Counted from the first letter of the stretch, positions 1,276 through 62,666 are shown. The stretch: DNA of 64,000 bases from Caecitellus pseudoparvulus (GCA_965644315.1 CBFFRQ010000065.1:248001-312000); one strand, 5' to 3'. Program-made: numbers and translations. The notes: generated by a model not told the origin, from the sequence alone.

Positions 1276-4200
1276 CTACCAGGGGGTGTTGCGGGTGGAC
1301 GCGTGTGTGATGCCCCAGTCATCCTCCTGTGCGACGGCTGGCGTGGCGAGGTCCACCATGGACAGGGGCTGGCCAGCCGACGTGCCTGGAGTCGCCCACG
1401 TCTGACGCGAGTGCCCAGTCGAGCCATGGCGCTGCGATGCGCGTGAGGCTGCATGCCCCTGGGCATGCACAGGTCCTGCCTTGCGCGTTCGGGGCGCGGG
1501 CGGCGACCGCAAGTCGACAGAAGCGTGGGGAGCGGAGTCGTGGGGGAGCTGCCCAGCCTTGCTGCGGTGGGCAGCTTGGTGGCGCTGCGCGTAGCCATGG
1601 GGCACTACGGGTGGGGTGGGCGCGGCTTCGTCTGGCAAAGCAGGCACCACCCATCGAGCCACCGTTGGCCCTGCTGCCTTGGCTTGTCTAAGGCCAGCAG
1701 CATCCTGCTTCCCTCCAGCGGCCGAGGGCAGGGGCGCTGGCAAGTACGCAGTGGTTCGCGGCTCCGGCTTGACCGGCGCGACGGCGGGTACACGCCAGGT
1801 TTGGGGGTGCAGGCTGCCAGGTGAGCCGGCGTCCAGCTCCAGCACAGAACTGGACTCGGACAGCTCAACTGGCAGGTGCCGTGGCACACCCTTCACTTTG
1901 CGCAGAGGGCCACGCCGGGTGGACTTGGGCCTCTCTGCTCTGCTGGCTTCCAGGCGCCGCCGCGAGCGCACAGACAGACCCGTGGGCGTGTCTACCCCCG
2001 GCGGGTACTCCACCAGGTGGCTACCGTGACGGCGGGTGGGGTGTGGGATGGGGATGCGGGAGGGGGGGTGGCGGGCGCGAGGGGAGGGGCCCTCACTGCC
2101 CTCTTCCTCCAGTTGCGTGGATGCCAGGGAGGGCAGGCTGCTGGCTCCATCGCTGTCTGAAGCATGGGCACCGCTGCCATGCGCTTCTTGCGGCTGCACC
2201 GGCAGCGAGTCCCACAGCTCAGCCAGCGCGTACCCCGGCGAGGAGAGCTGCATCTGGGTCTGCCGCTGGCTTGAGGGGGGGCTGGTCATGGGCGGGGAAA
2301 CTCCGGGAGCAACTGTTTGGAGGGTCTTGCGCAGTGCAGCTGCCGCAGCCCCAGCTGGGGTCGTGGGCACAGCCTTGTACGGAGAGGACCGGGGCCCCGC
2401 AGCAGGTGGGCGGGAGGTGTGGGGAAGGACGACAAGGTCAGAGGTCCAGCCACCAGCAGCAGCAGCTGACGCCGTGCGCAGTGCGCTCTCCACCTCGTCG
2501 TGGGAAGGCAGGCTCATGAGTGCCTCGGGGGTGGCGTGTGTGGCTGCGGCGAGGCCTGGCATGATGTCCAGGATGGAAGTGCCTGCGGATGCCAGGGCAG
2601 GCGGCAGGGCTGGGGCGCCCGCTGCTGCGTGTTCAGAGCGCAGCACGCTGGCCCTGCGACGGCGGCCACGCGCCGGAATGCCCCGGGGCTGCTCGGGTGC
2701 CCATCCGTGCGTGCCGTGGGCCCTGGCAATGTGAGCACGATACAGCGTCTCCAAGATGCCAGGCTTGCTCTGCTGCACCAGCCACGCCTCCAGGTATGGC
2801 ATGAAGCTGGTGGGCACTGGGCAGAAGGACAGCAAGCAGTGCAGCAGGACCCACCCTCGGGTCATGGCCACGTCGGGGGGTGACCCGGACAGCTGTTTGA
2901 TGCACTGCAGCACCAACTCGTCCACCAGGTATTGCACAATGCAGCCAATGTGCACGAGGGCCGTCACGCCTTCCACCACAGGGGGGCTGATCCAGTCCAC
3001 ACCGCCCTGCGCAGGTGCGTGCAGCGAGCTGTCTCCCAGCACCCCTTGCACTGTGCGGAACATACGCCGCGTCAGCATGATGACGCCCTGTGGCTGCTTG
3101 GTCAGGGAGGTGCCCAGACCTGCGCCAGAATGCATCAGCATGCCTGCGCCCGCTCCCGGAACACCAGACAGTTCTTCGAACTCGTCGCTGCTTCGAAGGT
3201 TGGGATAGGCCTTGATGCGGTAGTGGTGCAGCGGCGCGACGAGAGCAGCCTGCCCCCCGAAGGTCGTGTTCTCCTGCATGGACAGCAGTCGTGGGGAGAG
3301 GGCGGCACCCGAGCCTGTCGTGGCCGCGCCGTCCTCGCCTCCCGCTGCTTCAGTGCGGCCCATGTGCAGCCTGGCCTGTGCAGCTGCGGCAATGAGCGCG
3401 TCTGCGTCGACTCCCTCCGCAGGCTGGGCTGACAACTCAGCCAGCCGTGCAAGCGCCGTGGTGGCGGCAGTTTCGCTCGCCAAGGCTCGCAGGTCAGCAA
3501 GCAGGTCAGCAGGCAGTGCACCGGCATCCCCAGCTGCGTCAATCTCGGCCACCATGCGACGGGCAGTGGGGATGTCCCGTGCCTTCACTGCAGCTGCAGC
3601 CATGGCACGGTGCTGGTGGCGTTTGGCCAGTGTCGCTGCAGCGCGCTGTAGCAGGCCCAGCGTGGCGTCGGGGACGGCCACCGCTGCCGACTGTGGTGCC
3701 GCATGCGAACTCCCCAGCAACGGGGGACCAGACACAGGGGCGTCGCTGCCCACCGGCCGGGGCTTGTGCAAGCCTCCCGGCCGGGGTTTCAGCGCAGTCA
3801 AGCTGAGGCCCATGGCTTTGCCCTGGGCCAGGGCTCGAGCCATGAGTGCCTCATCGCCCGAGCCAAGCGCATCCTCCACTTCGGCATGCAGGCGAGACAA
3901 CTGCTGTGCCCTGTGTGCCACGGCCCGCACTCGCCGCTGCACGTCGTCGGGCGTCGGTACGCGCTCCACGCCCTCAAGAGCGTAGGCAGACACGTCACTC
4001 TGCGTTGAGCCGGGCGCATGTGTGCCAAGCAGACCGTCCCGTTCGCCCTCCACACTTGCCACGATGGACGGGAGGGGGACCAGCGCCACCCGCATCCACG
4101 TGCGGGGTGGGGGCAGGCTGCTCCCAGCTGGAGGAGACATGTCAGCCGGCAGCAGCTGAGCGGGAACTGGTGTCCACACCTCCCCTGCACGGGTGCGCAA

Positions 4201-7200
4201 GCCGCCTGCACCGGCCACCTCAACTGTCGCGTACCGGCGGGAAGGGTCCCACTGCTGCCTGTCCCCAGCACCAACGCTCGGGGGGGCACTGATCACATCG
4301 CCGGAGCCAAGGCCTGCCCGCAACAGCTTGGACCACACGGGTTGGGGCGGAGGGTGCACCCCAGGCACGCCCAGCAGGGACAGACGAGCAAGCTGCTCTT
4401 GCATGGCGTCCGCCTGCAGAGCTGCAGCGGCTTCCTCCGCCGCTGGCAGCACGGCCGCAATGCCAGACTCAGTCTGCGCCACGTTGCGCCAGTATGCAGC
4501 TTCGGTGGCGACTAGTCGGGCCGCTGCTGCCGCGTGGCGAGCCAGTGACACCTCGGAGCCACCTAGACTCGGCTGCGCGTCCCACATGCCCGCCATGGGT
4601 TCGGAGCTGGTAAGTGAGGCGTGGCTTGCTGCTGACACTGCATCCGCCGGCACGCCAACCGCCTGACACCAGGCAGAAAAGTCTCCCTGGAGCAGGGACC
4701 CTGCCCCTTGGGCAGAGGTGTCGCGATCTCGCTGGCTGCCAGCAGCCTGATAAGGAGGCGGTGGGTTTGCGAGGCACAGCGCCAACAGGGTCGGCCACTG
4801 GGCGCCGCTGGCTGCCTTCCGCATGCTCAGAAGGCGCTGCGCCGCACCGAGGCACGAGGTGATGTACGGGGGCAAGCGGGGCGTGGACACTGCAGCACTC
4901 AATGTGCGCAAGGCCTTGCCGAGCGCTGAACTGGCACCAGGCCGGTCTGCCCCCGGTCGGTACTGACTAAGCTGTGGGCTCCCATCCCCCATCTCACTCG
5001 CCTGCTTCGCCCGCATGAGACCCCGGTCCAAGGCACTGACGAGGTGCGCCAGGTCGGGTGCGCGTTGGGTGGGCCCACTGCCGCCGACGCCTTGCTTGCT
5101 CTGCCCAACCTTTCCTGCTCTGGGGACGCGTGCAAGCAGTGCAGCGGGGGGCACCGCTGGGTCTGCCACAGCACTGGAAACGCTTTGGGATGCTTGCAGC
5201 CCACACAGCAACGCCTGCAACGACACACGTGCAGCGAGCTCCATGGCTGCGGCCTGTGTCTCATGCGCGAGGTGCTCTGCAGCAGCAAGAGCAGCGTCGT
5301 CCAGGCTGTGCAGGCGAGGCAGGCCGGGTGTGGCAGCAGCGCCGTGTGTCCTGGGGGGCACTCGTTGTGAACTGTGGCCAGCATGACGGCTGGGCACCTG
5401 TGTGGACATGTGTGGCGAGTCGCCCAGCAGCAGCTGGCCCAGCGCGGCCCTGGCGGCATCCACCACCTCCCCCACAGCACTCCAATCACCTGCATCATGG
5501 GCGTGCCGCATTGCCAGCAGCAAGTCGGCAACGCGGCCAAGCGTGTCGGGTTCACTGGACTTCGACGAGTGCGTCTGGAGCAGCAGACGTTCTCCAGGCC
5601 TGCTTGCAGGGGACGTCTGTGCACTGCTCACCAAGCCCCATTCCTCGTCCCCCCTCGGGGATGATGGCGACGTCGATGTGCTCCCCGCACCGCGCCCTCC
5701 GAACCCGTCAGGATGGCTCGGGGCCAAACCGAGAGCGGAGACAAGAGCCTTGGTCGCATCTGCCGTCGCGTCCAACTCAGCCTTGGCAGCAGCGACCCGG
5801 TGTTGTGTTTTCCGGGTGGTCCCCATGCTGCCCAAGACGTGTGAGGGGGATACGGCAGGTTCGGAAGTGGGGGGTCGCGAGGACAGGTGTGGCGTGCGGG
5901 GCAAGTTTGTCGCCATCTCGTGGCTGATGCGCTGTCGATGCATGGCGGCTTGAGCAGCCCCCCACAGCAGCCGCAGTGCAGGCACCAGACCCTCACGCGA
6001 CGCCTGCGTGGAGCCCAACCCTGCTACGCGCTCCCGCTCCGCCTCGCCAGCCAGCGCTCGCAGTACAGTTCGGCCGGCAAGGCCAGGACTGGCAGTGGGC
6101 GACCCAGGCCCAAACAAGGCTGCTTCGTCTTGAGCCGTCACCATGGGCTGCAGCAAGACCCAGTCGCGCCCTGGCGCGTCCCCTGCCACCGCCCAAGGCA
6201 TGCTTTGAGCCGACGTGTGGGATGGGGGGGTGTTAAAGGCACCTGCAGGTGCCGCACTGTCTTGGCCTCTGGGGGTAGACGGCGCGGCCTGCTTGGCGTT
6301 CGAGGCGGCCTCCGGGGCACCACTCGAGGAAGAGCCCAGGGACACGGCAGCAACTGGTACCGCAGGGTGTGGTGATGACAGCTTCGCCTTGCCTGGGGCG
6401 GCTAGCAGTGGCACGTGGGGGGGTTGGTCGGCGGCGAACGGAGGCACAATTGAGGCCGAGGTTTCACTGTCCCCTAGCAGCTCCCTGGGCAGGTACGACG
6501 CTGCAGCTGCGAGTTGGGGAGCAAGGAAGGTTCCGCCAAGATCCAGCTTCAGGCCGGACGCCGGGCGGTCCAGTGCATCCACACTGCCATGCAGGGGCCC
6601 CATGGCCAGTCCCGTGGCTGCACCAACCAGTCCAGCTTGAGCACGGTTCCCGCTCTCAAGGGCTGCTTGCGCAACAGCCTTCGCCAGACCCGGCCAGTCC
6701 CTCTGCTGGGCGGCCTTCAACGCTGCCTGAGCATGCTGAAGAAGAGGGGCATCGTGCTGGCATTCAGGCTGCGCACACGGTGCACTGCCGTGGTTCAGAG
6801 TCTCGCAAACCACTTCCACGTCAGCTGTGGCTTGCTCAAGCTCCCGCATGGCTTGATGCAAGGCGGTCACAGATTGCTGGCTGGGGGCGAACCGGGGAGC
6901 GATGAGTTGGCACAGCTCCTGGGGCAGTGCCGCAAAGACGTGCTCAGGCCTAATAGCACGGGAAGCTTGACAGGCAGCCTTCTCTGCTGCCTTACTGAGC
7001 ACCGCTCGCGCAAGGGCTTGGAGGCGGGGGGCGACCTCTTGCTCGACCAGGGGAGCAGCTGCTGCCATATCCGCCAGGACGCCGGGGAGGACTGACTCCC
7101 GAAGCCAGCTGTCCACTCGCTCCACCCACTCGGCGCGCCGCTTCGCCAGGCCCGGGTGCGCAGCTGACAGGCGGGTGGTGTGGCTGGGTGCCGCACTGCC

Positions 7201-10200
7201 GACTCCTGCAATGCCTGCGCTGGCAGACTCAGCCACGTTAAGCAACTTGCGCAAGCGGGTTGCACTAGCCTGCAAGGGCGCTGCAGGCCCCTGCTGGGCG
7301 GCAGCTTTGCCTGAGCCGGCACACAGCAATGCCAGCCAGGCAGGGGGCAGGGCGCGCGGGGGCAGGGCAGTCGCCAGGCGAGCGAGGCCGTCCCACACGC
7401 CTCCCCACTCTTCCCACAGCACTGCACGGTCTAGCTCAGCCACAGCAGTGAGCCACAAACCCGCACCACGGGTGTGAGGTCCCAACGCTAGCAGTGACAC
7501 ATGGTGCTCTGGCAGGGCCAGCATGGCGTGGCTGGGTGTGATGGCCAGCGCTGTTGCGAGGTGTGCTTGCTGCCCCTCTGGCGCCTGCGGCCAGACTGTG
7601 TCTCGGGGCATCAACACTCTGCCATGGGTGCACTGCAGTGCCGCCGCCTCAGCTGGCTTCAGCAGGCCCGCGCAGTGCTTCAGATCTGACAGGGCGGCGG
7701 GGGAACTCGCAAGGCTATCGCCATGCGCTGCGACTTTCGGGCCTGTCAGGGCGGAGAGCAGAGTCTCCGTGAAAGCTGTATCGCTAGGGCCGCCTGCTTC
7801 GGCACTGGGGCTAGCGCCATGCTTCAGAGCACGGCGCACTGCAAGCAGCGTCCTCCCAGTGGAGTTTGCTGGCAGGTCCACTGCCGAAGGAAGCACCAAA
7901 TCTTGACTTGGGAGGTGCTGCGGGACCAGGGCATGCTGTACAGTCTCGTCAAGGAAGCTTGGCTTGCTTTGAACGTGCGTGGGCTTGTCTGCAGCCATTG
8001 AAGGCGACGGCGTGCTACGTGGCTGCACACTGGACTCGGTGGTCGCTGCGTCCCGGATGGATCCGGGCGCCATATCGGTGCTGGTGGGCTCCGCCTGCTG
8101 TGAGGCGCCTGGACCTCCTCCCTTACGTACTGAAGAAGGTTCTTGGTCCGTCGGGGGGCACGAGAGGGCATCCACCTGGGGGCTTCCTGCTGCTGCAAGG
8201 GAGCTCGGTGCTGCTCTCCCCCCGCTGGAAAAGCTCGCGCTGCCTGACGCCACACTGGACTCCTGGACTGCACTCTGAGCAGAACCATCATGCACTGGGG
8301 GGCGCACTGCTTGATCTGCCGCAAACTGCGCACCTTGCCTGGGAATGGGCGGTGGGGAAGATGAGTGCACGCTTGCCGGGGATACAGCTTGGACGGGTGG
8401 TGAAGCTTGGGGCATTTGCTGGCCCCCAGTCTCATCCCGCCCCTGTTCTGATCTCAGCGGAGAGCTTGCCTGCACGCGCGGGCTGCTGGTTTTTTGTTCT
8501 CGGGGAGCTGCGCTAGAAGCCTCATGCACAGCGGCTGCGATGCTCGGCTGAGGCGGTGGCGGGCGGGGGGACGGTGTGGCCGAGTCCTCTCCACTTCGCC
8601 GGGATGGAGCAGGTGTGTGAAGGTCAGGGCTTGGATCCGACTGCCCCGCATTTCGAGCAGGCAAGGCTGCCTTCGCTGGCGCTGCCCCGCTCATCTGCAT
8701 GCCAGAGCCGTCGCCCCGCATCCAGCCTGAGTGGCCTCGTTGCGAAGCGGCCGAGTGGCCTGCAGGGGGCAGCCCGCCGCCGTTCCTGTCGGAAGTGTGC
8801 GAATCAGCGACAGCGTGCAGCATCGGCCCAGGTGCAGCGGCAGCTTGGCGACGCCCTGCGGCTGCAGGCGACGGAGGCGTAGAGCCAGCCTTCCGAGCTG
8901 CGAGGGCCAGCATGGCACGGGGGTTTGGCACAGGGTTTGGCTCGGTCCTGCCCTGCGAGTGACCAAGAATCTTCTTAGGAGGGGAGTCTCCAACAGGCTT
9001 GGGCTTTGAGGCAGCAAGAGGGACTGAGCCGCCTGCCTCGCTTGCAGGGTTGGGCGAGGTGGCAGAGCTTGCTGTGCTTGATGCACGGCTTGACGCATCA
9101 CCTTCGATGGCGGCGGCAGGGTGCGAAGCTGCAGATGCTGGCACTTCTGCAGGGGCAGGTGTGTGTTCCTGTCCTCGTCCCTCAGGCAGTCCAACGTGCT
9201 CTTCGCCGGCGTGCTCGGAGCCAGAGTCCTCCGCGCTGGAGGCAGTCCCCGAAGAATGCACTGCCCCCAGGGACAGCCCAGTTTCAGCCTGGATGCGGGC
9301 GAGTAAATCATCTGCGTCCTCTCCAACACTGTCAGACTCCAGTGGTGACTCCCCCCCCGCTCGTGACTCGACGACAGGTGACCCACTCCCTGCATCATGG
9401 GCTACCGCCTCACCTGAAGCTTGGCTGTCAAGGGTGGTGGTGCTGGACCCTGACGAGCTTGCATCGTCGGCGTCAGAGCTGTGTTGGCTCGGTCCAGCTG
9501 GAGATTGCGTTGCGCTGGAACTGCCCTGTGCAGGGGTTGCACGGGCCGAGTGGACGCCTCCGGGGCGCCCAGGTCCGTCCTCTGGCTCAGGGCTCAACTC
9601 TTGCGTATCAGGGCCTTCACTGGCTTCCTGCACGTCGCCAGCGGAGTGAGCAGAGTCGAGGTCTAAACATTGGCGTTCAAAGACAAGCATCCACGTCTCA
9701 CAGTGCGCCACGAGCTGGCGCAGGTGGGACAGCGTATCCACGGCATCTGAGTACCCGCATGCATGCATGACCTCCACAGCCTGTCTCTGGAAGTCCGTGA
9801 AATCTTCCTCAGACAGCTCATCCACCTCTGCACCAGGCTGCAAGGCGCCGCTGCGCTCTGCGGCGGACCGTAGCAACAGCGAAGGCATGGACTGAATGTC
9901 ACTCCCCAGCTCATCCAACACGTCCTTCAACATTGCCAGACACTCCTCTAGCTGCTGCCGTCCTGCTGCAAGGGCTGCCCGCGTCCCGGGCAGATCACCG
10001 CCCTGCCCCACCTCGCGGCGCCTGGCAGCTGTCACATCCGCTGCCATAGCAAATGCAGCCCCGTTCACAGCCTGCAGCAGGGATGCAGCAGCCATGATTT
10101 GCTGCACCAGTTGCGATTCGGGGTTGAAATCTTCGCTCTCGGCAAGCACATCGGCAACGGCATCCAGCGCGCCCTCGCCGCCCTCCGCCAGCACGAGTTC

Positions 10201-11010
10201 CGGCAAAGAAACGCCACCCTCGCCACCACGCACCAGCGTGGAAGAAATGAGGTTACTTGGGATGTTCTGAAGTGCCTGACATAACTCCAAGAGCACAGTG
10301 TGGTTCTCCACCACTGCCATGGCGGCATCCAGCTCGGCCTGGATGTGCCCCGCCGGCAGTACGGGCATGTCCCGCAACTCAGTGTCCGCAGCAAGCCCGG
10401 CAACGTCATCAATGGCAGCACTGGCGGCGTCCATGTCCAGGGCTAGGAAGGCAGCGCGCAGGCGGCGCATGCGGGAGGCAATGGACCTGCACCGATTCAC
10501 CAGTGCCGAGCGGGATGCCGCGTCCTTTGAGGCAGCGAGGGCGGCTGCTAGGCGCGACTCCATGATGCCAGAGGGGGCCACACTGTGGCCATCTGGCGCC
10601 AGCTCCACTCCACCAGCCCGCAGAGCCTCTGCCAGCTTGCCGAGCAGCAGCCGTCGTTCAACTGCTGCTGCGACGGTCTCCAGCTCAGGGTGTGCAGCAG
10701 CGTGCAGGACTGGGATGGAGTGCAGGGCAGCCTCCACCTCCACGTACTTTCCAGTGTTAAGCAGACGTCGAATGTGCAGGAGATGGCGTGCTGCAAGCAG
10801 CAACTCCTCCTCCTCGGGCTTCTCAGGCTCGGTAACACCAGCATAGTACTCCTGCCACTGCTCCAGCACACCAGTCACTGCTTCCTCTTGCACTGAGCCA
10901 TCCTCTGCGAAAGTTGCGGTGCCACAACCCACAGCATCTCTGAAGTCTGCAACGACTGACGACCGGTGTGGCGCGACGTCGCTGTCGGACGAGGCAGAGT
11001 CAGAGGCCAT
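1276..11010 (-). CDS. Giant (3244 aa) Ala/Ser/Pro-rich protein with a C-proximal MyTH4-like domain and no myosin motor
   Basis: Uninterrupted 9.7-kb ORF starting at ATG. Near 2770-3240 the sequence 'TSLTK...RRMFRTVQGVLGD...LVDELVLQCIKQLSGSP...TRGWVLLHCLLSFCPVPTSFMPYLEAWL' matches the MyTH4 consensus (LRDEIYCQLxKQLTxNP..RGWxLLxxxxxxFPP..L..YL). Confidence 0.7.
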   Translation of the reverse strand: MASDSASSDSDVAPHRSSVVADFRDAVGCGTATFAEDGSVQEEAVTGVLEQWQEYYAGVTEPEKPEEEELLLAARHLLHIRRLLNTGKYVEVEAALHSIPVLHAAAHPELETVAAAVERRLLLGKLAEALRAGGVELAPDGHSVAPSGIMESRLAAALAASKDAASRSALVNRCRSIASRMRRLRAAFLALDMDAASAAIDDVAGLAADTELRDMPVLPAGHIQAELDAAMAVVENHTVLLELCQALQNIPSNLISSTLVRGGEGGVSLPELVLAEGGEGALDAVADVLAESEDFNPESQLVQQIMAAASLLQAVNGAAFAMAADVTAARRREVGQGGDLPGTRAALAAGRQQLEECLAMLKDVLDELGSDIQSMPSLLLRSAAERSGALQPGAEVDELSEEDFTDFQRQAVEVMHACGYSDAVDTLSHLRQLVAHCETWMLVFERQCLDLDSAHSAGDVQEASEGPDTQELSPEPEDGPGRPGGVHSARATPAQGSSSATQSPAGPSQHSSDADDASSSGSSTTTLDSQASGEAVAHDAGSGSPVVESRAGGESPLESDSVGEDADDLLARIQAETGLSLGAVHSSGTASSAEDSGSEHAGEEHVGLPEGRGQEHTPAPAEVPASAASHPAAAIEGDASSRASSTASSATSPNPASEAGGSVPLAASKPKPVGDSPPKKILGHSQGRTEPNPVPNPRAMLALAARKAGSTPPSPAAAGRRQAAAAPGPMLHAVADSHTSDRNGGGLPPAGHSAASQRGHSGWMRGDGSGMQMSGAAPAKAALPARNAGQSDPSPDLHTPAPSRRSGEDSATPSPRPPPPQPSIAAAVHEASSAAPREQKTSSPRVQASSPLRSEQGRDETGGQQMPQASPPVQAVSPASVHSSSPPPIPRQGAQFAADQAVRPPVHDGSAQSAVQESSVASGSASFSSGGRAAPSSLAAAGSPQVDALSCPPTDQEPSSVRKGGGPGASQQAEPTSTDMAPGSIRDAATTESSVQPRSTPSPSMAADKPTHVQSKPSFLDETVQHALVPQHLPSQDLVLPSAVDLPANSTGRTLLAVRRALKHGASPSAEAGGPSDTAFTETLLSALTGPKVAAHGDSLASSPAALSDLKHCAGLLKPAEAAALQCTHGRVLMPRDTVWPQAPEGQQAHLATALAITPSHAMLALPEHHVSLLALGPHTRGAGLWLTAVAELDRAVLWEEWGGVWDGLARLATALPPRALPPAWLALLCAGSGKAAAQQGPAAPLQASATRLRKLLNVAESASAGIAGVGSAAPSHTTRLSAAHPGLAKRRAEWVERVDSWLRESVLPGVLADMAAAAPLVEQEVAPRLQALARAVLSKAAEKAACQASRAIRPEHVFAALPQELCQLIAPRFAPSQQSVTALHQAMRELEQATADVEVVCETLNHGSAPCAQPECQHDAPLLQHAQAALKAAQQRDWPGLAKAVAQAALESGNRAQAGLVGAATGLAMGPLHGSVDALDRPASGLKLDLGGTFLAPQLAAAASYLPRELLGDSETSASIVPPFAADQPPHVPLLAAPGKAKLSSPHPAVPVAAVSLGSSSSGAPEAASNAKQAAPSTPRGQDSAAPAGAFNTPPSHTSAQSMPWAVAGDAPGRDWVLLQPMVTAQDEAALFGPGSPTASPGLAGRTVLRALAGEAERERVAGLGSTQASREGLVPALRLLWGAAQAAMHRQRISHEMATNLPRTPHLSSRPPTSEPAVSPSHVLGSMGTTRKTQHRVAAAKAELDATADATKALVSALGLAPSHPDGFGGRGAGSTSTSPSSPRGDEEWGLVSSAQTSPASRPGERLLLQTHSSKSSEPDTLGRVADLLLAMRHAHDAGDWSAVGEVVDAARAALGQLLLGDSPHMSTQVPSRHAGHSSQRVPPRTHGAAATPGLPRLHSLDDAALAAAEHLAHETQAAAMELAARVSLQALLCGLQASQSVSSAVADPAVPPAALLARVPRAGKVGQSKQGVGGSGPTQRAPDLAHLVSALDRGLMRAKQASEMGDGSPQLSQYRPGADRPGASSALGKALRTLSAAVSTPRLPPYITSCLGAAQRLLSMRKAASGAQWPTLLALCLANPPPPYQAAGSQRDRDTSAQGAGSLLQGDFSAWCQAVGVPADAVSAASHASLTSSEPMAGMWDAQPSLGGSEVSLARHAAAAARLVATEAAYWRNVAQTESGIAAVLPAAEEAAAALQADAMQEQLARLSLLGVPGVHPPPQPVWSKLLRAGLGSGDVISAPPSVGAGDRQQWDPSRRYATVEVAGAGGLRTRAGEVWTPVPAQLLPADMSPPAGSSLPPPRTWMRVALVPLPSIVASVEGERDGLLGTHAPGSTQSDVSAYALEGVERVPTPDDVQRRVRAVAHRAQQLSRLHAEVEDALGSGDEALMARALAQGKAMGLSLTALKPRPGGLHKPRPVGSDAPVSGPPLLGSSHAAPQSAAVAVPDATLGLLQRAAATLAKRHQHRAMAAAAVKARDIPTARRMVAEIDAAGDAGALPADLLADLRALASETAATTALARLAELSAQPAEGVDADALIAAAAQARLHMGRTEAAGGEDGAATTGSGAALSPRLLSMQENTTFGGQAALVAPLHHYRIKAYPNLRSSDEFEELSGVPGAGAGMLMHSGAGLGTSLTKQPQGVIMLTRRMFRTVQGVLGDSSLHAPAQGGVDWISPPVVEGVTALVHIGCIVQYLVDELVLQCIKQLSGSPPDVAMTRGWVLLHCLLSFCPVPTSFMPYLEAWLVQQSKPGILETLYRAHIARAHGTHGWAPEQPRGIPARGRRRRASVLRSEHAAAGAPALPPALASAGTSILDIMPGLAAATHATPEALMSLPSHDEVESALRTASAAAAGGWTSDLVVLPHTSRPPAAGPRSSPYKAVPTTPAGAAAAALRKTLQTVAPGVSPPMTSPPSSQRQTQMQLSSPGYALAELWDSLPVQPQEAHGSGAHASDSDGASSLPSLASTQLEEEGSEGPSPRARHPPSRIPIPHPTRRHGSHLVEYPPGVDTPTGLSVRSRRRLEASRAERPKSTRRGPLRKVKGVPRHLPVELSESSSVLELDAGSPGSLHPQTWRVPAVAPVKPEPRTTAYLPAPLPSAAGGKQDAAGLRQAKAAGPTVARWVVPALPDEAAPTPPVVPHGYAQRHQAAHRSKAGQLPHDSAPHASVDLRSPPAPRTRKAGPVHAQGHAASRASQRHGSTGHSRQTWATPGTSAGQPLSMVDLATPAVAQEDDWGITHASTRNTPW

Positions 11011-11319
11011 GCTGCGGAAGTAGGGAAAAACGCTTCGCAGACCAGGCGCCTTTCGTCAGTCCTTGCGCGAAGGGTGTTCACAGGCGGCGGCGCAAGCGCG
11101 ACGACCAAGTCAAACCACTACACAGCAGGGTGTGGGAGAGGTCTGAGTGCTTCAACAGCACGTCTGGGTCAATCTGAGCGAGCGAGCTGCCTCACAGCTT
11201 CAGTTTCCTTTGCCTGCAACCGTGCCCCGCAATGTTGGGGGAAGCCAAGCACAGCACCGGGCGCTGTGAAGCTTGCAGTTCTGCAACCTCTGGCGGCCTT
11301 CCTTGCATTGTGCCAGACT

Positions 11320-14029
11320 TTACAGTTTGTCGAGGAAAAATGATGCAGGGTGGGGCTCTTCGCTGAGGCCGCCTTCCAGGCGCCGACGAGACACAGCTTG
11401 GGCCAGTGCACTTTGTGGATCATCCAGCCTCCCTTCCAGGGCACTCCAGCCACAAGAGCTCCAGTACAGCACGGCATCTCCATCAGATGCATCGCCTGCA
11501 GCTTGTATGACGTCATCGTGGGCCTCAACTGGCACCTGGCACTTGATGATGGACGGGAGCCCGCCGCTGGCTTGCGTCACCTCCAGCACTTCTGCCCCCG
11601 CACTTTGCACTGCATCCAGGACTACATCTACAAACTGCTGCATGACGAGCGCATTGCACTCAAGAGCAGCAAGCGCTAGTGTGGGTTCAGCGCTGAGCAT
11701 GCCGCCGTACACCACCCGCCGCGCTGTGGGGAGCAGCTGCCCCACGCCGCGATGGATCGCGTCAGCGTAATACAAGGCATCCACCAAGTGCACCTGTACG
11801 CCATGCAAGGGGTCTCCACACAATGGGCCCTCTGCTGTTGCCATGTGAAAGCCGCTAGCAACGCCTGCCCTGAGTTCATCGATGCACCGCAGCATCTTCG
11901 TGGACTCGAACAAGGCGCAGGCTGCGTCCTGCTCTGGACCAACTGCCCACAAACGCCCAGAAGCTGGGCTGATGCCGAAGTCCTTAAGTGCTGAAGAGTG
12001 AAGGGGATCAGACTTTGGGGGGAACTGGAACGCCCCAGTCTGAAGAGCGTCGACCATGGGCTCAGGAAGCCGACCAACCTCTGCCCACAGTCGGTTGTGC
12101 TTGTTTGGCGACTTCGCCATGACGGCAGCTGGCGTGGTGCCCCGGACACCCTCCCGGGCACATGGCACAACGTTGGAGGTGCGGATCTGGAGCCCAGGGA
12201 ATCCCATTGTCTGGGTGTTCTCCGCGGCGCGGCGAAGCAGCGCTGGAGTGGCACCGTACACACAGTGCTCCCCCGATGCCCGTGTGCCAACTGCAATCTC
12301 ACAGTGAACGTGAGCCAGCCAGCGCAGGGCTTGCACGAGGCGGGGCATGTGCTGGGCGGCCAGCGGCTCGATGGCCATGCAGCATGCCCTGCGAATGCTT
12401 CTGTACAATGGAGTCAAGGGCTGCAAGCTTGCGTCGTCACTCAGAGTGCATGCGTCTGTGAGGGATGTACCGCTTGTCTCCAGCAGAACCACGTGCCCCG
12501 CCACAGCTGAAGGGACTGCAGCGGTCTTGTGCTGGAATGGAAGAAGGATTCGCTCCACAACTACTTTGTGTGGGGCGCACTTCTTGCCTTCACTCAACAC
12601 GTACAGCTCCTGGCCGCTCTGCAAAATGCCCGACACAACGCGGCCCATTGGCAGGAACGGGGCTGCTGAGCCTGTGCACGGCAAGTACTTGACGACATCC
12701 ACAACAGCTGGTCCACTCTCGGCGGCTGCCTCTAATACTGAGTACATGTCACCTTTCGCGAAGGATGCAAGCCTCTCAGTCGCCCGCGAAGCTGGTACAA
12801 GCGCTGTTCGCAGCAGTTGCGAGAAGGCACGTTCAAGCGGCAGCCAGCAACGCAGGAAGGCAGACGAGCGCGAGTCACCAGTCTGTTCTGAAACTTGACT
12901 AAAGCTCTGGCCAAGATGCAGCTTCTCGGCCATGCTGGCCAGTCGCTCTGGGTCAGTGCGTGCCGCTCGGATCACCTCCCGAAGCGGGCGCAGAACCAAT
13001 CGGACGAAAGCGCAGTTCTTTGAGCTGTGAGGCGAAGGAGCCCCTTCCATCTCCTCCCAACTTTTCGTACTTGGGTGGAAGATGAAGCCACCCCACATTC
13101 TTTCCAAGAACTCTTCCTGGGGCATGGCGAGCTTTGCTGCGTACTCAGCCGCAAAATCCTGCAAGCTGAAGCTCCAGCCATGACGCGAGCTGCCACATAG
13201 GACTGTGCACTGCCGCATGTCCACCCGGACAGGGTCTGCGACACCCACTGAACCAGTGGCGAGAGCAAGGTTGACTTCTTCTATGCGCTGCCACAGCGCC
13301 GCGTACAGCGAAGGCAGTGATAACTCCTCGTCAGCCAGCGCTTCATGCAACCCGTCCAGGAACAGCAGTGGCGTCATACCCTCCGACGCCACCGACCGCA
13401 CGTCCGCCGCAAGGCAATCCACCAAAGGTGCAAAGCAGTGCGTTGTGATGACACCATTGTCGCTCATCCGCAAGGCACCAGCGACGTCCCGTGTCCCATC
13501 CCGCGCACACGCACTGGCGTGCAAGCGGACCAGCGAGCCACCTGTGAGCGGCCCCGCAGCCCCTGCAGCAGCGGCAGCTCCGGAACCAGGCACGAACAGC
13601 GCATGAGGGACAAGAGATGGGACGCCAATGTGGACATCCTCAGGGGCCCGTGTGCCCGTGAATCGGTGGTCAGGCCTTGGCGGCGGCGCAGGAATGAGCC
13701 AGGCTTCCTCCAGGCGCTTCACCAAACACGACTCCGTTCCACCTTGGGCGCACAGCACTGCGACGTGGCACTGTTCATACTCTCCCCTAGCCGCCCGTTC
13801 ATAGTCAAACTCCGCAACCTTCACTTCATCGCTGCTGGTCGCCTGTGAAGGTGTTGGCGTGTTGGGAGGCAAATTCCGCAAGGGTGCCGGAGCTCAAGGG
13901 AGGGCGTCTTGACAGGGAGGACGGAGAAGAGATGTCAAAACTGACCGCAAGCATACATACCTGTGTGGGACTTGCGTGTGGTTCATCATGCGCATGATCG
14001 GAAGAAGGGAGGCTCTCGCTGTGTGACAT
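11320..14029 (-). CDS. Divergent eukaryotic elongation factor 2 (eEF2) paralog with degenerate GTPase motifs
   Basis: Exon 1 is 14029-13961 (MSHSESL...PTQ), the intron is 13960-13843 (GTATGT...CACAG), exon 2 is 13842-11320; about 863 aa. eEF2-type motifs: 'RFTGTR', 'GSSRHGWSF', 'KSPNKHNRL', 'EGPLC', 'ADAIHRGVGQLLPTARR', C-terminal 'FLDKL'. Confidence 0.85.
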
Positions 14030-46880: not shown

Positions 46881-49800
46881 ATGGAAACTGAGTATGTTTG
46901 GGCCATTGACAAGGATGAGGCCTGGGTGAAGTGCGCAGTGCTGAGTCAGGTGCGCTGAAAGGGAAAGCAGTGGCCCAAGTGCACTGCCTCTCCCCACCCT
47001 GCACCTCCCCACGCTGCACCACGTCACCGCACACACTTGCGCAGGAGATCAAAGAGGATGGTAGTACGGACTTTCTTCTCCAAGCTGAAGGCGAAGTGGA
47101 GCCTAGGAGAGTGACTGCAACCCACGGCGGCAGTGAAAGTGGCGCCGGTGCGGAAGTTGGCCCTGGCGACAGCGTCGAGTTTGACACCATCAAGACCGCA
47201 AACGACTTTCCCGAGGGGGCTGAAGCCGTGGAAGACTTGATTTCCCTGCCCCATCTTCATGAACCCTCCATCCTTCACGTCATCTCCAGGCGCTTCGCGA
47301 GGGATGACATCTACACGGCATGCGGCAGCGTGTTGCTGGCTGTGAACCCCTTCCGGCCCCTGCCGCACCTGTACTCCTCAGACACGCTGCAGTCCTACCA
47401 CACATACAGCCTGCTGACCTCTAGCGGGGGTGAGGTGGATGCAGCACTGCCCCCTCACGTGTATGCGACAGCCGCCGCAGCACGAGCAGCCATGATGAAC
47501 GGAGACCCCGCTCTGGGGGTGGTCGTGAACCAAAGCTTGCTGGTGTCCGGTGAGAGTGGAGCGGGCAAGACCGAGACAACGAAGATTGTCATGCGTTTCC
47601 TTGCTGCGGTCGGCGCCTCGTCCAGCTCTGGCGGGCACAGCGACATGCACGCACGGGTGCTGCAGTCCAACCCCATTCTGGAGGCCTTTGGCAACGCTGC
47701 CACCCTGCGAAACGCCAACTCTTCCCGATTTGGCAAGTACATTGAGCTGCAGCACGATGTGCAAGGTGCCCTCGTCGGTGCACGCATCTCACACTACCTG
47801 CTAGAGCGGGTGCGCCTCGTACGGGTGGGGTCTGGCGAGCGCACGTACCATGCATTCTACCAGTGCCTTGCTGGCGCACCAGCTGAGTGGAAGGAGGCGT
47901 GGGGCGTGCCGTCCTCTGCAGATGAGTGCATGGCGCTGTTCAAGCTTGTGCAGCAGTCAGGGACGAGCGCTCTGGAGGGCGTGGACGACGCTGAGGAGTG
48001 GGCGGGCACGCTGGCGGCCATGTCCACGATGCAGTTCGCAGGCGACGACGTGCAGGGCATGTGGCGCACTGTGGCGGCATTGTTGTGGCTGGGGAACGTT
48101 GAGTTTGTTGCAGGGCCAGATGGCCCTGACTCCTCGGTGGTGCAGTCGGCCGGCGCCAGCGGGGAGGCGTTTGAGAAGGCCTGCGACCTGCTGGGCGTGG
48201 AGGCTGCCGCGCTGCAGGACGCCCTGACGAGCAAGACGCTGGTGGTTGTGCGCGAAAGCACAAAGAAGTACTTCACGCCTCGGGGAGCTGCAGATGCGCG
48301 TGACGCCCTCATCAAGGCGCTGTACGGCGACCTCTTTGCCTGCATTGTGTCGGCGGTGAATGCGCGCATCAGGCAGGACGCCACGACGGACAGCTTCATC
48401 GGCGTGCTGGACATCTTTGGCTTCGAGTCGTTCAAGAGCAACTCCTTTGAGCAGCTTTGCATCAACTACGCGAACGAGACGCTCCAGCAGCACTTCAACC
48501 AGTTCGTGTTCAAGGCAGAGCAGGCGGAATACCGGCGAGAAGGCATTGACTGGACGGGTATTTCCTTCCCCGACAACGCAGAGTGCCTGGACCTCATCCA
48601 GGGTCGATCTCCGCCTGGCCTGCTGTCGCTGCTGGACGAAGCCTGCCTCATGCCTCGCGGCAGTGATGAAGGGTTCGCCCGCAAGTGCTACGAGCACCTC
48701 GGCAAGCACCCTCGCCTGCACGTGACGTCGAAGCAGCGCGCCAGGCACCAGTTCACAGTGCTGCACTATGCCGGGCAGGTCGTGTACTCGACAGAGGGCT
48801 TTTGCGACAAGAACAAGGACCGCATCCACCCCGAAGCAAAGGAAGTCGTCGCAGCGTCAAGCAACGAATTCGTGGCAGGTTTGCTGGGGCAGGAGGGCAC
48901 CAGCTCAGGTGACAGCACGCCAGAGTACATTTCCCGTGCCATCGCAGAGGCATCAACTGCACGAAAGGCCATGGGGGGCACTGCAGGCAAGTCGAGCTCA
49001 GGGGCTGGGGGCGGCAAGAAGCGTGTCAAGGCGGGGAAAGGCGCGCTGTCAGCACCAACAGTGGGGACACAGTTTCGCGGCCAGCTGCGCACGCTGCTGA
49101 CCATCATCAACGCCACTGCCCCGCACTATATCCGCTGCTTGAAGCCGAACGCCAGCTGCTCTCCCCGCATTATTGAGCGACCTGGTTTAGTGGCACAGTT
49201 GCGCTGTGGGGGTGTGCTGGAGGCTGTCCGTGTGTCCCGCGTGGGGTACCCTGTGCGCTTCCTGCACAGCGTCTTCGCAGCGCGGTACCGGGCCATCGCG
49301 GCAGCTGCTGGCTGCCCAGCCCTTGATGCCACCCCAGATGGCTGTGCATGCGTGTTGGAAGGCTTGGTGAGTGCCGCTCGGGAGGCGCGGTATGCGCCAG
49401 AGTCTGGCCACTCTGCCAGCCAGCGCTGGCGCGGCGCTGTGGCTGAGGCGCTTGCGAGTCTCAGCCCTGAGGGGGGGCCAGGCAAGTTGGAGGGCTTGTA
49501 CCAAGTGGGCAAGAGCAAGGTCTTCTTCCGGCAAGGCAGTTCTGAGGCACTGGAGGCTGCCCGGCAGCGCATTCTGGCCGCGGCAGTGCTGCGCGTGCAG
49601 GGCAGCATGCGCACTGCCCTTGCCGCCCGTCGATGGGCCAGCATGCGCCGTGCTGTGGTGACGGTGCAGTGCGCCATCCGGCAGGCAGCCGCCAGGCGTG
49701 CCTTAGCAACTGCGCGTCGCGAACGTGCGGCGGTGAAGCTGCAGGCATGGAGCCGTATGCTGCTAGCGTGCCTCGCTTTCGCACGGGGTCGCATGGCTGT

Positions 49801-51859
49801 CGTGCTCCTGCAAGCTGCCCTGCGAGGCTCGACTGCCCGTGTGATGGTGCAGTCCATGCTGCGAAACAAGGCCGCGGCACGCCTGCAGGCAACGGTGCGC
49901 ATGTGGCGTCAGCGTGGGCGTTGGACGGCCATGCAGCGTTGTGCGCGTGCGCTGCAAAACGCAACTCGGCAGCGGGCAGCCAAGCAGCGCCTGGCAGCCC
50001 TCCGCCAGGAGGCACGCAATGTGGACAATCTCAAGTCCACGGTGGCAGAGCTGCGCTCGGCCCTGGCTGCTGCCCAGGCGCAGAATGGCGCCTTGCTCCA
50101 GAAACTGCGCGGCAGCGAGGCGGCCGAGGCAGGGGAGCGGCAAGATGCAGGCGAGGCGGTGGCGGGTGACGGTCGCATCATGCCTGTGGATGCGCCCGCA
50201 GCACCCGTCGAGACCACTGAAGACACGGCCGACGCAGGGGGTAAGCTGGCAGGGCTCATGCAGCGTGCTGAGAGCGTGAGTTTGTCTGGCGTGCCAGATC
50301 TGCTGAAGGCGCTGGGTGTGCAACTCAGCGTTGTCAGCGAGGTGCAGGCTGCTCTGGCGGACCAACCACCTACCGCGGTGCAAGCTGCGCCCCCTGCATC
50401 CCCAGAGGTCACCGGCAGCCTCGACACGTCTGCTTCCTGCCCGCCCAGCACACCGCCGGCCACAAGGGAGAGTGCAGGCGGTGCGAAGCATAACGTCAGC
50501 CCCGCTCGTGGCACGCCCCCCCACCACACACCCAGCGGGGACAGGGCTCCCTCTGCGCCCTCCTCCGCACCACAGCAGACCCGCAAGGCGGGCCTGGACT
50601 GGCACCAGCGGTACCAAGCCGAAGTTGCGCGCTGTGCCAGTCTCCGCAAGGAGCGCGATCGCCAAGTGCGAGCGTTGGAGCTCAGTCTGGCACGCCTCAC
50701 CAGCAAGGTCGACAGCATCTCGCGTGAGCGGGATGCTGCCAAGGAAAACCTGAAGCTGGCGCGCCTGACACTGCAGGCCAGGCACGGCACACCCTCCATC
50801 CCCCGCAACCCGCCCAAGTCGACGCGGTCCGTCATCCCAAGCAGCCCCGCCACATACACAACACCTGCCAAGCGCGCGGTGGTTCTGTCCCATGACGTCT
50901 TTTCCGACGACGATTCCGACGAAGAACGCCCAACCAAGACGGCGGGTATGGCAAGCCCCGCCCACAGCCGCTCCCGCAGGGACAGCGCAGCCTCCTTTGC
51001 CACGGCGCTGGAAGAAGCTGAGGTGGAGGGCGCCCCAGCCTCACCAGTCCTGCGAGCGCAGGGCAGCAGCCCGCATCAGAAGGGGGCCTTCGCACAGGCC
51101 ACGGCGTCGGCCATCACAACTGTGCCGGAGCAGGGCGCGGCGCGGCCACGCAGCATCAGCAACTTCTCCTCCCACATTCGGAACTGGTTTGCGGGCAAGG
51201 CAGCGAGCCCCAAACACCAGACAACCCTGGACCTCACCAGCGGCCACACCAGCACGCGCCAAGTGCACGGTGGCGGCATGCAAGTTGACCGCTTGGCCAG
51301 GGCTGTGAACGGCTCCCCCATGGCAGGCGGCAAAGTGCCCATCCCTGCCTCTGTCGCGGCAGCTGCCCTGGCGGCACATGTCGTGGGTGGGCAGCTCGGT
51401 GAAGCCAGCCAGGCTCGAGGGCAGCTGCGTGGCGCTCGGCAGCGCCACCCCACTGGCTCTTGGCCTGTGACCAGTCCCCCCCCTCAACTGTCTGTGGTTG
51501 GGCCGGACACCCTGGTGTGGGTTCGCGGTCAGGAGGTGGCTCTGGGCGACCTGCCCCCCTCGGAGCGAGAGGTGGCCACTGCCCGTTTGGAGCAGGAGCT
51601 GGCAGCTCAGAGCCTCGCGGATGTGTCTGCGGAGCTGGCGGAAACCAAGCTCAGTTTGCAGGCTGCGCAGGCGGAGAAGGAGGAGCTAGCCAGCCGGCTG
51701 CGGGCGATGGAGAACGCAAAGCAGGACATCGTGGCTCAGCTGCAGCGCCTTGGAAACGTCCAGGCCCTAGCCGCGAAGTTGACTCGCCAGGAGGGCGGAC
51801 GCCAAGCTGCTGCTCGCGCAGCCCGCCGCACCCACGCCACAGGCACAGTCGGAGTGTGA
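46881..51859 (+). CDS. Unconventional myosin heavy chain (SH3-like N-terminus, motor, several IQ motifs, coiled-coil tail)
   Basis: Exon 1 is 46881-46949 (METEYVWAIDKDEAWV...), the intron runs to 47044. Motor motifs GESGAGKT, NPILEAFGNA, NSSRFGK, DIFGFE and HYIRCLKPN. IQ-like units include VQGSMR, VQCAIR, LQAWSR, LQAALRG and LQATVR. Confidence 0.95.
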
Positions 51860-53086: not shown

Positions 53087-53788
53087 GCAAGCACCAAGCA
53101 TCCGCTCGTAGAACGTGCAAAGTGTGCACTGTGGCATGCATGGGCTATAGTGCGTCATTCGAACAGTATTGCGCACTTGGTTCAGTGGCCAATTCTCCAC
53201 TGGGTGCGGAGGATCTCGAGTAGAAAGTGTACCGCAATGTTTGGCACGCTTTCCCCTCGGGGACGCAAAGATTGACACTTGCACAGATCGAATAAACAGA
53301 AAAACAATTCCCGAAACTAAGCACCAAAACGTCTTGTCCAGAGGGAAATTTCGTCCACCATCACCCTGTCGGCCTGCTCTTGTCGCTGCCTCGCGCCCTT
53401 GCCCCTCCTCAATCGTGGCCAGAGACTGCGCCAGCGTTTCAGTGAAGCTTCCCGCTTCCAGTGTCCCGTTGAGGAAAGCGGTAAGAGGACTTTCCCGGAG
53501 GGCGAGTCACACGAACACGTGAGTTTGCCTTTGTATTTGTTCCTGCACTTCGGCAGAGCACTGCGCGGGGTCTGGGTGAGCTGAAGGTGTGGCGGTCGCT
53601 GGCGACGGGTCAGCAACCGACTTCGCTGGCGCGTCTAGTGGCCCCCTGCGAGCGAGAGCGCGGATTCTGAGACCGCAGACGACTTGTGGGCGCATTATTA
53701 CTCGATTTTGCACGCATACCACCCCTGTTTGCTCTGCACCGGTTCCCAGGGCTGAACGGAGTCTGCGAAACGCCGTCCACGAAGCAGC

Positions 53789-60987: not shown

Positions 60988-62666
60988 ATGTGCAAGTGCC
61001 AGATGCCAGACTGGGACGAAGTATGTGCTTACAGCACGATGCGAGTGGTGAAGCTCCGGGACAGGCGACTGGGCCTCTTGAACGCATGTAGGTCGGGAGC
61101 CGCCCTGGCCACTGGTTCTGCTAGAGCGGGACCAATGCAGCCCCCCCCCGCCCCGTTCCCTGTGCAGTTTTCCAGCTGCTGATCTTGCTGTACATTGTTG
61201 TGCTGAACATCGTGCTGCTGCAGTCGTACCGGGCGGATGGGGAGCTTGTAGGCACGCTGCGGCTGCAGCTGCAGGCTCCTGCAGCAGAGTACCGTCGAAC
61301 TCCTGAGCAGTTGCCGTACTGTGGACACGGGGAGTACTTTTCAGACGGCGGGTGGCACCCACAGTACCCATGCAAGTACGACGATGCCCTGGAGGCGGTG
61401 TTCCCCTCTGTGGAGGCGAACGCTCTTTTCCTCACGACCCGCCAAGAGGACATCCAGCAGAACTTGCCACATGGCTGCCCCTCTCCAGACAGTTTGGACT
61501 GCTCCTACGTCACCAACGCGACGGAAACCTCCTACCTCGCCCAACCAGCGCTGTTCACGCTGTTGATTGACCACTCGGTCTCCGCGCCCAGCATTGACAT
61601 TTCAGACAGCGCCTTTCACATGGACGGCCGCATCGCGCCGCCTGGAACAGCGGGCTCTGCCGCAAATGATGGGGACGAGGCAAGCCTGTCGCCCTGCGAA
61701 GCCTACAGCGTCTTCCTGGACCCTCCCGCCGCGTGTGACACTGACGTCATCCATGTCGGCGTGAAGGACACCTTCGACATTGTACCCCTAGGCTCGCTCA
61801 TGATTGCCGCTGGCGTGCGCAGTCTGGACGCCAACCTCACTGACGCAGGCAGCCATGCAGGGGAGGCCCGGCGAAACTCAGGCAGTGTCTTCGTCGTCAC
61901 CATCAACTACGACAACTACGTCACATACTTCCCATCCGTCATCAAGTACGCGTACTCTGTCTCCGCCGTCAAGGCGACTGAGTTCAAGGCGCTGGAGACG
62001 CTGCCCGCGCCCGGCGCTTCCAAGACCTGGCGCCACATCATCAACCGACACGGCCTGCGTTTCATCTTCCTGCAGTCTGGGCGCCTGGGCGTGTTCTCCC
62101 TCCCCGCCCTCCTCGTCCAGCTGGTGTCCTCGTTCGGCCTCATCGCAGTGTCTTCCGCCATCGTGCAGTTCCTGGCCTTCAACGTCTTGGCCATGCGCTT
62201 CATCTACTCCCAGTACGCCACGGTCACATCGGTGGACTTCTCAGACATTGACCACATGGAGGCCAAGGAGCTCAAACGCTTCAAAAACCACGACCTCATC
62301 AACCCCCGACCTGCCATCTTTGCCCGCATCATTAGCTTTGAGGAGCGCGCAGCCTCTGCAGCCGCAGCTGGCCGTCCGTTCACTGCAGAGCAAGAGGAGT
62401 CCCTGCGCCATGCTGCGCAAGAGTCGAAACCTGTGTCTGTCGCGTCCCCCCTCTCCGAGCGGTCCATGTCTGGTTCCCGGACACCCTTGGAGTACGAGTC
62501 AGGCGTCAGCGAAGACGAAGGCACCGGCCCAGCCCGACAGCCGTGGGCCTCCAGGGCTGCCAGGGCCTCGGCCGCCGTGGCTGGTCCACGCCGCATTTCG
62601 AAGCAGAAAGGTGGCGTCAGCGAGCATTGGAGACCGACCGTCTTGAACAGGAGGGGTAAACCCTAA
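60988..62666 (+). CDS. P2X-family ATP-gated cation channel
   Basis: Exon 1 'AYSTMRVVKLRDRRLG' (YxTxK/R motif), intron about 61088-61167, TM1 'FFQLLILLYIVVLNIVLL', a Cys-containing ectodomain, pre-TM2 'RHGLRFIFLQSGRLGVF', TM2, then 'YSQY'. Confidence 0.85.

Follow-up and report, generated by a model that had tools for sequence, protein, structure and literature searches.

A full-length eEF2-derived paralog of Caecitellus pseudoparvulus with destroyed G1–G4 motifs and a kept domain IV tip

The locus and its gene model

The window, that is, the whole stretch of 64,000 nucleotides from Caecitellus pseudoparvulus that was analysed, is eukaryotic, with 60–70% G+C and long exons, and the libraries matching it include one seawater and one marine metagenome library. 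On its minus strand lies the gene of an eEF2-like protein, surrounded by housekeeping genes unrelated to it. Among the best matches of the neighbouring MCM3 that carry an organism name, one fish record comes first, ahead of oomycetes and fungi, and the host was read as a marine stramenopile-like protist. Directly downstream of the gene, on the same strand, is a low-complexity frame of 3259 codons that contains one MyTH4 domain (1276-11055). The window also holds a 2536-codon minus-strand frame with at least 19 EF-hand matches and RNA contig cover (18168-25778), a myosin head (46919-51859), an IQ protein (53756-58894) and a plus-strand ORF with a P2X receptor domain match at the Pfam cut-off (61125-62666).

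The gene occupies a minus-strand stop-to-stop frame of 857 open codons (11320-13893), and its model consists of the following parts.

11320..13842, minus strand: main exon, 840 codons and stop, eEF2-like five-domain protein (open frame, homology, AlphaFold2, intact alleles)
13843..13960, minus strand: predicted intron of 118 nt, GTATGT..CACAG (in-frame GT..AG splice model)
13961..14029, minus strand: predicted exon 1, 23 codons from the ATG at 14029 (in-frame splice model)
13995, 13989 and 13986, minus strand: alternative start ATGs (in-frame splice models)
13835, 13832 and 13819, minus strand: alternative intron acceptors (in-frame splice models)

An earlier note, made from the sequence of this DNA, had described an intact frame of about 863 residues. 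The frame is open, and the model that starts at ATG 14029 and removes the intron 13960-13843 translates cleanly into 863 residues; this length depends on the predicted exon 1 and intron, and other pairs of ATG and acceptor give 845–855 residues equally well. Since these pairs fit equally well and none of the RNA contigs mapped to the window spans the predicted intron, the N-terminus is a prediction only. The six introns of neighbouring genes seen in RNA measure 65–95 nt, compared with the predicted 118 nt. At the level of the sequence, the product is confirmed as a full-length, five-domain eEF2-derived protein with G1–G4 destroyed, colinear with canonical eEF2 and about 25% identical to it (range 22–26%).

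Loss of the GTPase motifs

The nucleotide-binding motifs of the G domain were located by alignment and translation.

13729..13752, minus strand: degenerate G1 P-loop CAQGGTES, Lys to Glu, K32E (alignment, translation)
13648..13665, minus strand: kept switch I motif RFTGTR, in a loop of low AlphaFold2 confidence (translation)
13615..13632, minus strand: degenerate G2 HIGVPS, Thr lost (alignment)
13504..13518, minus strand: G3 degenerated to ASACA, without the Asp and the catalytic His, D104A and H108A as mapped via a fungal row (alignment)
13345..13356, minus strand: degenerate G4 DGLH (alignment, translation)
13180..13194, minus strand: partly kept G5 region GSSRH (alignment, translation)

The replacement of G1, G3 and G4 and the retention of RFTxTR, both described in the earlier note, were found as claimed. 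To these are added the loss of the G2 Thr, the partial retention of G5 and the change of the first His of the HxDxxHRG loop to Tyr. Compared with a canonical translocase, the G1–G4 motifs and the catalytic His are gone throughout (K32E, G2 Thr lost, D104A, H108A, DGLH). In Pfam, domains G, III and V gave no match; domain IV alone is above the cut-off, and domain II is below it. The protein is thus predicted from its sequence to be an eEF2 paralog unable to bind or hydrolyse GTP. The Thr of the kept RFTxTR motif occupies the position of the eEF2-kinase site.

Descent from eEF2

In phmmer, eEF2 leads the PDB matches with 242.8 bits (E 7e-71, over residues 122-856), followed by Snu114 with at most 168.6 bits and EFL1 with 47.5 bits, the latter (5anb_K, 1120 aa) over residues 228-361 only. 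With our own profiles, the margin between eEF2 (299.6 bits) and Snu114 (269.0 bits) is narrow. A clearer separation is given by five length characters, compared over 21 eEF2 rows and 14 Snu114 rows, all of which are of the eEF2 type in the paralog: it has no 4-residue insert in domain IV (21 residues, as in 20/21 eEF2, vs 25 in 12/14 Snu114), no C-terminal insert (30, within the 29–31 of 20/21 eEF2, vs 42 in 12/14 Snu114), a long G2–G3 span (41; eEF2 34–62, Snu114 30–31), a tail of 15 residues (19/21 eEF2; at least 23 in 13/14 Snu114) and no long N-extension. With the chains 7old_C, 4v6w_Az and 1n0u_A of canonical eEF2 it shares the same five-domain order, the five lengths, both domain IV loops and the DKL end, and it differs from them in the replaced G1–G4, the lost domain III and V motifs and basic patches, and the 22–26% identity.

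The trees, which contain no EFL1 rows, are less decisive. When eight other degenerate paralogs are included, the gene falls in the eEF2 clade with SH-aLRT 98; when the paralog stands alone, on a branch of 5.3, a grouping with Snu114 is not rejected (p-AU 0.47). The one-sided diagnostic sites are even (eEF2 21/115, Snu114 14/73), and the two-state sites lean towards Snu114 (5 eEF2 vs 12 Snu114 of 31; 11 vs 20 of 74). The two-state sites are ranked below the length characters because of the long branch, the unusual composition and the biased choice of Snu114 rows, which were selected for the tree and site tests by likeness to the query. With the length characters and the loops weighed higher than the trees, the paralog is eEF2-derived. 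The preference of the earlier note for eEF2 over EFL1 and Snu114 is therefore upheld by the five lengths and the order of the phmmer matches, and the phylogeny that it had called for places the gene with eEF2 only in the company of the other degenerate paralogs; the tree of the paralog alone is also compatible with a Snu114 grouping.

Two other identities were considered and rejected. Snu114/EFTUD2 resembles the paralog in using an eEF2-like fold off the ribosome and in keeping a similar share of domain IV sites, with PDB matches up to 168.6 bits, but it keeps its G motifs, and its long N-extension, 4-residue domain IV insert and 12-residue C-terminal insert are all absent from the paralog. 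EFL1/Ria1 has about 1,100 residues, against 845–863 residues colinear with eEF2, and matches with only 47.5 bits.

An AlphaFold2 model built on a 103-row alignment predicts a five-domain fold with complete eEF2-like architecture (mean pLDDT 84.6, pTM 0.82; switch regions of low confidence), and since the alignment is eEF2-rich, the model is no independent proof of the fold. In Foldseek, eEF2 comes first by E-value and is also preferred by identity. The TM-scores of Snu114 (0.70–0.73) exceed those of eukaryotic eEF2 chains (0.46–0.59); these differences reflect domain orientation.

Domain IV tip and ribosome anchors

The regions of the protein that would face the ribosome or eEF2-modifying enzymes are unequally kept.

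12235..12255, minus strand: domain III motif GAGELHL changed to GATPALL (alignment)
11680..12171, minus strand: domain IV, the most conserved large domain compared with eEF2 and the most variable among alleles
12091..12114, minus strand: intact domain IV loop KSPNKHNR (translation; role of the loop from PMC6143161)
11737..11772, minus strand: diphthamide loop YYADAIHRGVGQ, His at 11752-11754; D696, I698, R700, G701 and G703 kept, H694Y and G702V changed
11596..11607, minus strand: basic patch x-K/R-R-R-G of domain V lost and replaced by QSAG (alignment)
11323..11337, minus strand: eEF2-type C-terminus FLDKL (tail length 15, as in 19/21 eEF2)

The KSPNKHNR loop, the His codon and the terminal FLDKL agree with the earlier note. 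Among sites invariant in 21 canonical eEF2s, the paralog keeps 26/105 in the G core, 10/17 in G′, 17/50 in domain II, 10/38 in domain III, 29/56 in domain IV, 8/38 in domain V and 4/6 at the C-terminal end. Retention in domain IV is above that in the G core (Fisher p=0.0009) and above that in domains II, III and V together (35/126, p=0.002). The good conservation of domain IV noted earlier holds in this relative sense only, as Snu114, a protein active outside the ribosome, retains on average 63% of the same eEF2-invariant domain IV sites; the retention is for this reason partly structural. A more specific sign is the presence of eEF2-specific surface residues that are absent from Snu114, namely K594, S595, R601 (numbered from the alignment), E673 and D711. 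Together with the intact, constrained frame and the loss of G1–G4, these residues bear out the suggestion that the tip is preferentially preserved over catalysis.

According to PMC6143161, the domain IV of a canonical translocase is marked by the SPxKHN and HxDxxHRG loops and a Glu-Arg salt bridge, and PMC6143161, PMC4861600 and PMC4896748 describe a tip that uses P580, K582, H583, H694 and H699 in addition to this bridge. In the paralog, the first loop, the D, H, R and G of the second loop and the Glu are present, with Tyr at the first His and Val at G702. By mapping through the fungal row, P580, K582, H583, E658, H699 and R700 (yeast numbering) are all present. Val at the G702 position occurs in only 8/114 matching sequences, 3 of which are this gene's own alleles. 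We infer that His714 of the paralog is diphthamide-modified; the changes H694Y and G702V could hinder diphthamide synthesis.

Most of the known ribosome anchors are gone. PMC4896748 and PMC4861600 describe an eEF2 anchored on the ribosome by domains III and V, Y744, V754, K613/R617/R631 and H108. Compared with this set by fungal-row mapping, the paralog has Y744L, AG in place of the domain V RRG patch, and K613, R617 and H108 lost, so that within the K613/R617/R631 cluster only R631 is kept, as is V754. The invariant GAGELHLE of domain III reads GATPALLR, and the C-terminal RKG is lost as well. Only 24/57 conserved basic sites are still basic, whereas 204/256 hydrophobic sites are still hydrophobic, and the paralog has 19 Lys compared with 62–66 in four canonical eEF2s. 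The earlier note does not list the loss of the 60S-subunit anchors in domains III and V, that of 33/57 conserved basic residues, or the changes H694Y and G702V (yeast numbering).

Alleles, constraint and expression

Two further alleles, P0002 and P0010, are full-length, intact and 95% identical, with 42 and 43 differences in 834 residues, the start residue set by the gene caller included (42/833 for P0010 with the start excluded). On what is apparently the same 60,789-base contig as P0010, MCM3 differs at 1/679 residues. No indel was found in the ORF in four sequencing runs. In simulations of neutral drift, the frame stayed open in 30/200 runs at 95% identity and in 0/200 at 70%.

The variants assessed were 40 listed of 205; 24 of those listed lie in the ORF (13 non-synonymous, 11 synonymous), and one synonymous variant was added from a further listing. 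Among the 25 listed in this way, 12 are synonymous, an excess with pN/pS 0.37–0.43 (p=0.012–0.029 vs neutrality). In three neighbours, pN/pS is about 0.05–0.06, as 30 of 40 listed variants (of 60) split into 4 non-synonymous and 26 synonymous. The contrast between the two splits among the variants listed (Fisher p=0.003) is only indicative because the neighbour variants come from a different run. Constraint on the gene is real but weaker than in the neighbouring genes. GC3 is 0.64, compared with 0.74–0.86 in seven of eight neighbouring ORFs and 0.67 in the eighth, and this low value suggests weak codon selection.

Variation among the three alleles is concentrated in domain IV, which holds 18/52 variable sites in 164/834 residues (Fisher p=0.01), none of them in KSPNKHNR or the His loop. 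In a circular-shift test, in which clustering is kept, the excess becomes borderline (43/834, p ~0.05). It rests on three alleles, and conversion by a second copy of the gene would likewise account for it. Two further sequences diverge from the window: an RNA contig of run X20 at 11840-11988 in domain IV, with 18/149 bases different, and a haplotype piece of run X5 at 12948-13165, with 13/218 bases different. Each of them is an old allele or a second copy.

Run X20 shows six GT..AG joints in neighbouring genes and therefore holds RNA of this organism. Three of its contigs lie on the ORF, with partial cover at a depth of 2–3.4, all from one study. Of the splicing and expression that the earlier note had asked to see in RNA, low-depth transcription is observed, and the predicted intron is unbridged. 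A pseudogene was considered and rejected on the three intact alleles, the lack of ORF indels in the four runs, the pN/pS of about 0.4 (0.37–0.43) and the RNA contigs.

Relatives and other GTPase-dead paralogs

In the search for relatives, 8 matches were obtained among 7,995 candidates scored, with only the alleles as orthologs, and no ortholog was present among 7,996 shorter candidates. Except for the allele, none of the best 150 of 1,805 representatives exceeds 35% identity, and the 80 metagenome loci kept of 422 are all 23–30% identical. These searches thus contain no ortholog between 35% and 95% identity, although sister-lineage MCM3s at 73–78% exist; such negatives are weak, since relatives at 50–90% are merged into a single representative and the word seeds are widely spaced.

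The same kind of degeneration is found in other proteins. The set examined comprised 103 full-length non-Snu114 proteins, with the two alleles, the Snu114 rows and the rows outside 760–1100 aa left out. Both the G1 Lys and DxxGH are missing in 26/103, the query included, and 61/103 keep both. Among the 25 other G1- and G3-dead clusters, 15 keep D-x-x-H-R-G, 6 keep PN[KR]HNR and 5 keep both; an RFTxTR-type motif occurs in 0/25. The HRG motif is not enriched in dead rows (16/26) compared with G-intact rows (37/61). The dead rows are alike in having lost G-coupled residues of domains III and V, and the other dead paralogs keep domain II better than the query, with a mean of 65%. An organism was assigned to seven of ten degenerate rows: the fully dead set includes the fungi Gongronella and Lecanicillium and the oomycete Aphanomyces, and the partly degenerate or partial rows include Dactylellina, Cladochytrium, Dictyostelium purpureum and Flagelloscypha.

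Dead and part-degenerate paralogs group at SH-aLRT 95, with a stem of 0.069, among long branches. A profile of the 25 other dead paralogs scores the query at 427.8 bits, vs 358–376 when six matched draws from the G-intact divergent rows are used instead, and for domains II–V only the values are 299 vs 239–257 bits. This grouping may stem from shared descent, parallel loss or long-branch pull. A search among openly accessible articles gave no published account of eukaryotic eEF2 paralogs with a dead GTPase or of a decoy for eEF2, and the class of recurring GTPase-dead eEF2 copies is apparently undescribed so far.

Several individual proteins of the wider set deserve mention. P0037 is a G-dead eEF2 paralog with a YYADAIHRG loop as in this gene; it is separate in the trees, and its H694Y is possibly parallel. 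In two EF2-like proteins, P0017 and P0145, the G1 P-loop is interrupted by a long intein-like insert with C...HN ends; P0017 is placed with divergent rows of eukaryote type, P0145 with archaeal ones. P0015, of 1335 aa, is a degenerate eEF2-like protein in which the G/G′/II part is repeated exactly, through a tandem duplication or an assembly artefact. Among the representatives P0011–P0159, the 61 full-length divergent eEF2-like proteins that keep G1 and G3 include 24 without the H-R-G loop motif.

Possible functions of the paralog

The best explanation of these features, to which we assign a probability of about 0.4, is that of an off-ribosome bait or decoy. The paralog would present the eEF2 domain IV tip, and with it the switch I Thr, to eEF2-modifying proteins, while the canonical eEF2 of the host would carry out translocation. 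Such a bait may face diphthamide-directed ADP-ribosylating toxins, and it may soak up or sense an attack on eEF2. It is the simplest reading because the protein is predicted not to cycle, most mapped ribosome contacts are lost and the two sites that other enzymes modify in eEF2 are kept. Diphthamide-directed toxins, according to PMC4549722 and PMC13171429, come from aquatic and soil bacteria and have eEF2 as their target. As PMC4549722 also states, a change of G701 to Arg blocks the action of cholix, DT and ExoA in yeast, and G701 is kept in the paralog. Consistent with a bait are further the tip residues absent from Snu114, the retention of domain IV above domains II, III and V, with the named ribosome anchors mostly lost and basic sites at 24/57, the allelic changes that are enriched in domain IV and spare both motifs, the pN/pS of 0.37–0.43 vs about 0.05–0.06 in three neighbours, and the recurrence of the same design in other eukaryotes. 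Against it, H694Y and G702V may impair diphthamide synthesis, and a toxin sink should be abundant, yet GC3 is only 0.64. The domain IV polymorphism excess is borderline, with three alleles and conversion as an alternative; Snu114 keeps much of domain IV for reasons other than toxins, and both RFTxTR and the tip serve as contacts to the 40S subunit as well. The toxin decoy proposed in the earlier note thus gains modest support from the kept tip, G701 and the lost anchors. The link to a bacterivorous host that the note proposed is conjectural, and dead paralogs of a similar kind are found in fungi and an oomycete.

A non-cycling ribosome binder, which would insert domain IV into the decoding site without GTP and cause silencing, stalling or slow GTP-free translocation, is a possible but less probable reading. 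It agrees with the retention of P580, K582, H583, E658, H699 and R700, which serve decoding-centre contact or loop stability, and with RFTxTR, kept in the N-terminal part of switch I that contacts 18S h14 in eEF2–ribosome structures. The better kept domain II of other dead paralogs also fits, and so does the reported presence of eEF2 on hibernating ribosomes in several solved structures. PMC12775393 cites an EF-G paralog that carries out translocation without GTPase activity. The losses of Y744, the domain V RRG patch, K613, R617, H694, H108, GAGELHLE and the C-terminal RKG speak against binding, as do the low shares of invariant sites in domains II (17/50), III (10/38) and V (8/38). The hibernation or stalling factor put forward in the earlier note is accordingly weakened by Y744L, RRG to AG, the loss of K613/R617/H108 and the change of GAGELHLE to GATPALLR, with its tip contacts kept. 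A related case is EF-G2 of Bacteroides, the paralog cited in PMC12775393, reportedly a translocase paralog without GTPase activity that still translocates; it is bacterial, whereas the eEF2 paralog has lost most mapped ribosome anchors.

It is unlikely that the gene is a relaxed, slowly decaying duplicate, whose open frame is tolerated as a folded harmless product and whose domain IV is kept for stability. Such a relic would account for the 42 and 43 differences per 834 residues to the two alleles vs 1/679 in MCM3, the branch length of 3.4–5.3 changes per site, the low GC3 and the lack of an ortholog at 35–95% identity in the searches, though sister-lineage MCM3s were found at 73–78%. However, 12/25 listed variants are synonymous (p=0.012–0.029 vs neutrality), and simulated neutral drift closes the frame (0/200 open at 70%), yet the protein is colinear at about 25%. 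The ORF has no indel in four runs, and exposed eEF2-specific residues and the flexible RFTxTR loop are kept. Least probable is a neofunctionalised scaffold or sink for eEF2 maturation or control (Dph enzymes, eEF2 kinase, chaperones), a Snu114-like reuse of the fold: both kept sites are ones on which host enzymes act (diphthamide synthesis and the kinase site) and the domain arrangement of the model is nearer Snu114 (TM 0.70–0.73 vs 0.46–0.59), but this gap reflects domain orientation in a model from an eEF2-rich alignment, eEF2 is preferred by E-value and identity, and the allelic variation around the tip is left unexplained.

Known paralogs and implications

Second copies of EF-2 are known from other lineages. 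The archaeal aEF-2p, as described in PMC6143161, is likewise an EF-2 paralog predicted to be no translocase, and it forms the mirror image of the present gene, with G1–G5 kept and the domain IV loops lost. The divergent eEF2 duplicates of Naegleria gruberi (PMC4342817) are likewise lineage-restricted extra copies; its passages on these copies describe neither GTPase loss nor function.

If the off-ribosome bait is the right reading, a wider and more doubtful proposal is that baits of this kind, GTPase-dead eEF2 copies, arose in eukaryotes repeatedly or go back to a single ancient duplication, and that they show the diphthamide tip so as to absorb or sense bacterial toxins directed at eEF2; the variation of the present gene around a His loop that does not vary would then reflect an arms race. 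Few eukaryotic proteins are as conserved as eEF2, and a folded, constrained copy without the engine, yet with the attacked tip, separates the surfaces of eEF2. The paralog is therefore a test case for whether translation is defended by decoys, or whether an eEF2-like protein acts on ribosomes without GTP. As the 25 further G1- and G3-dead clusters include some from culturable fungi and an oomycete, this question is testable beyond this organism.
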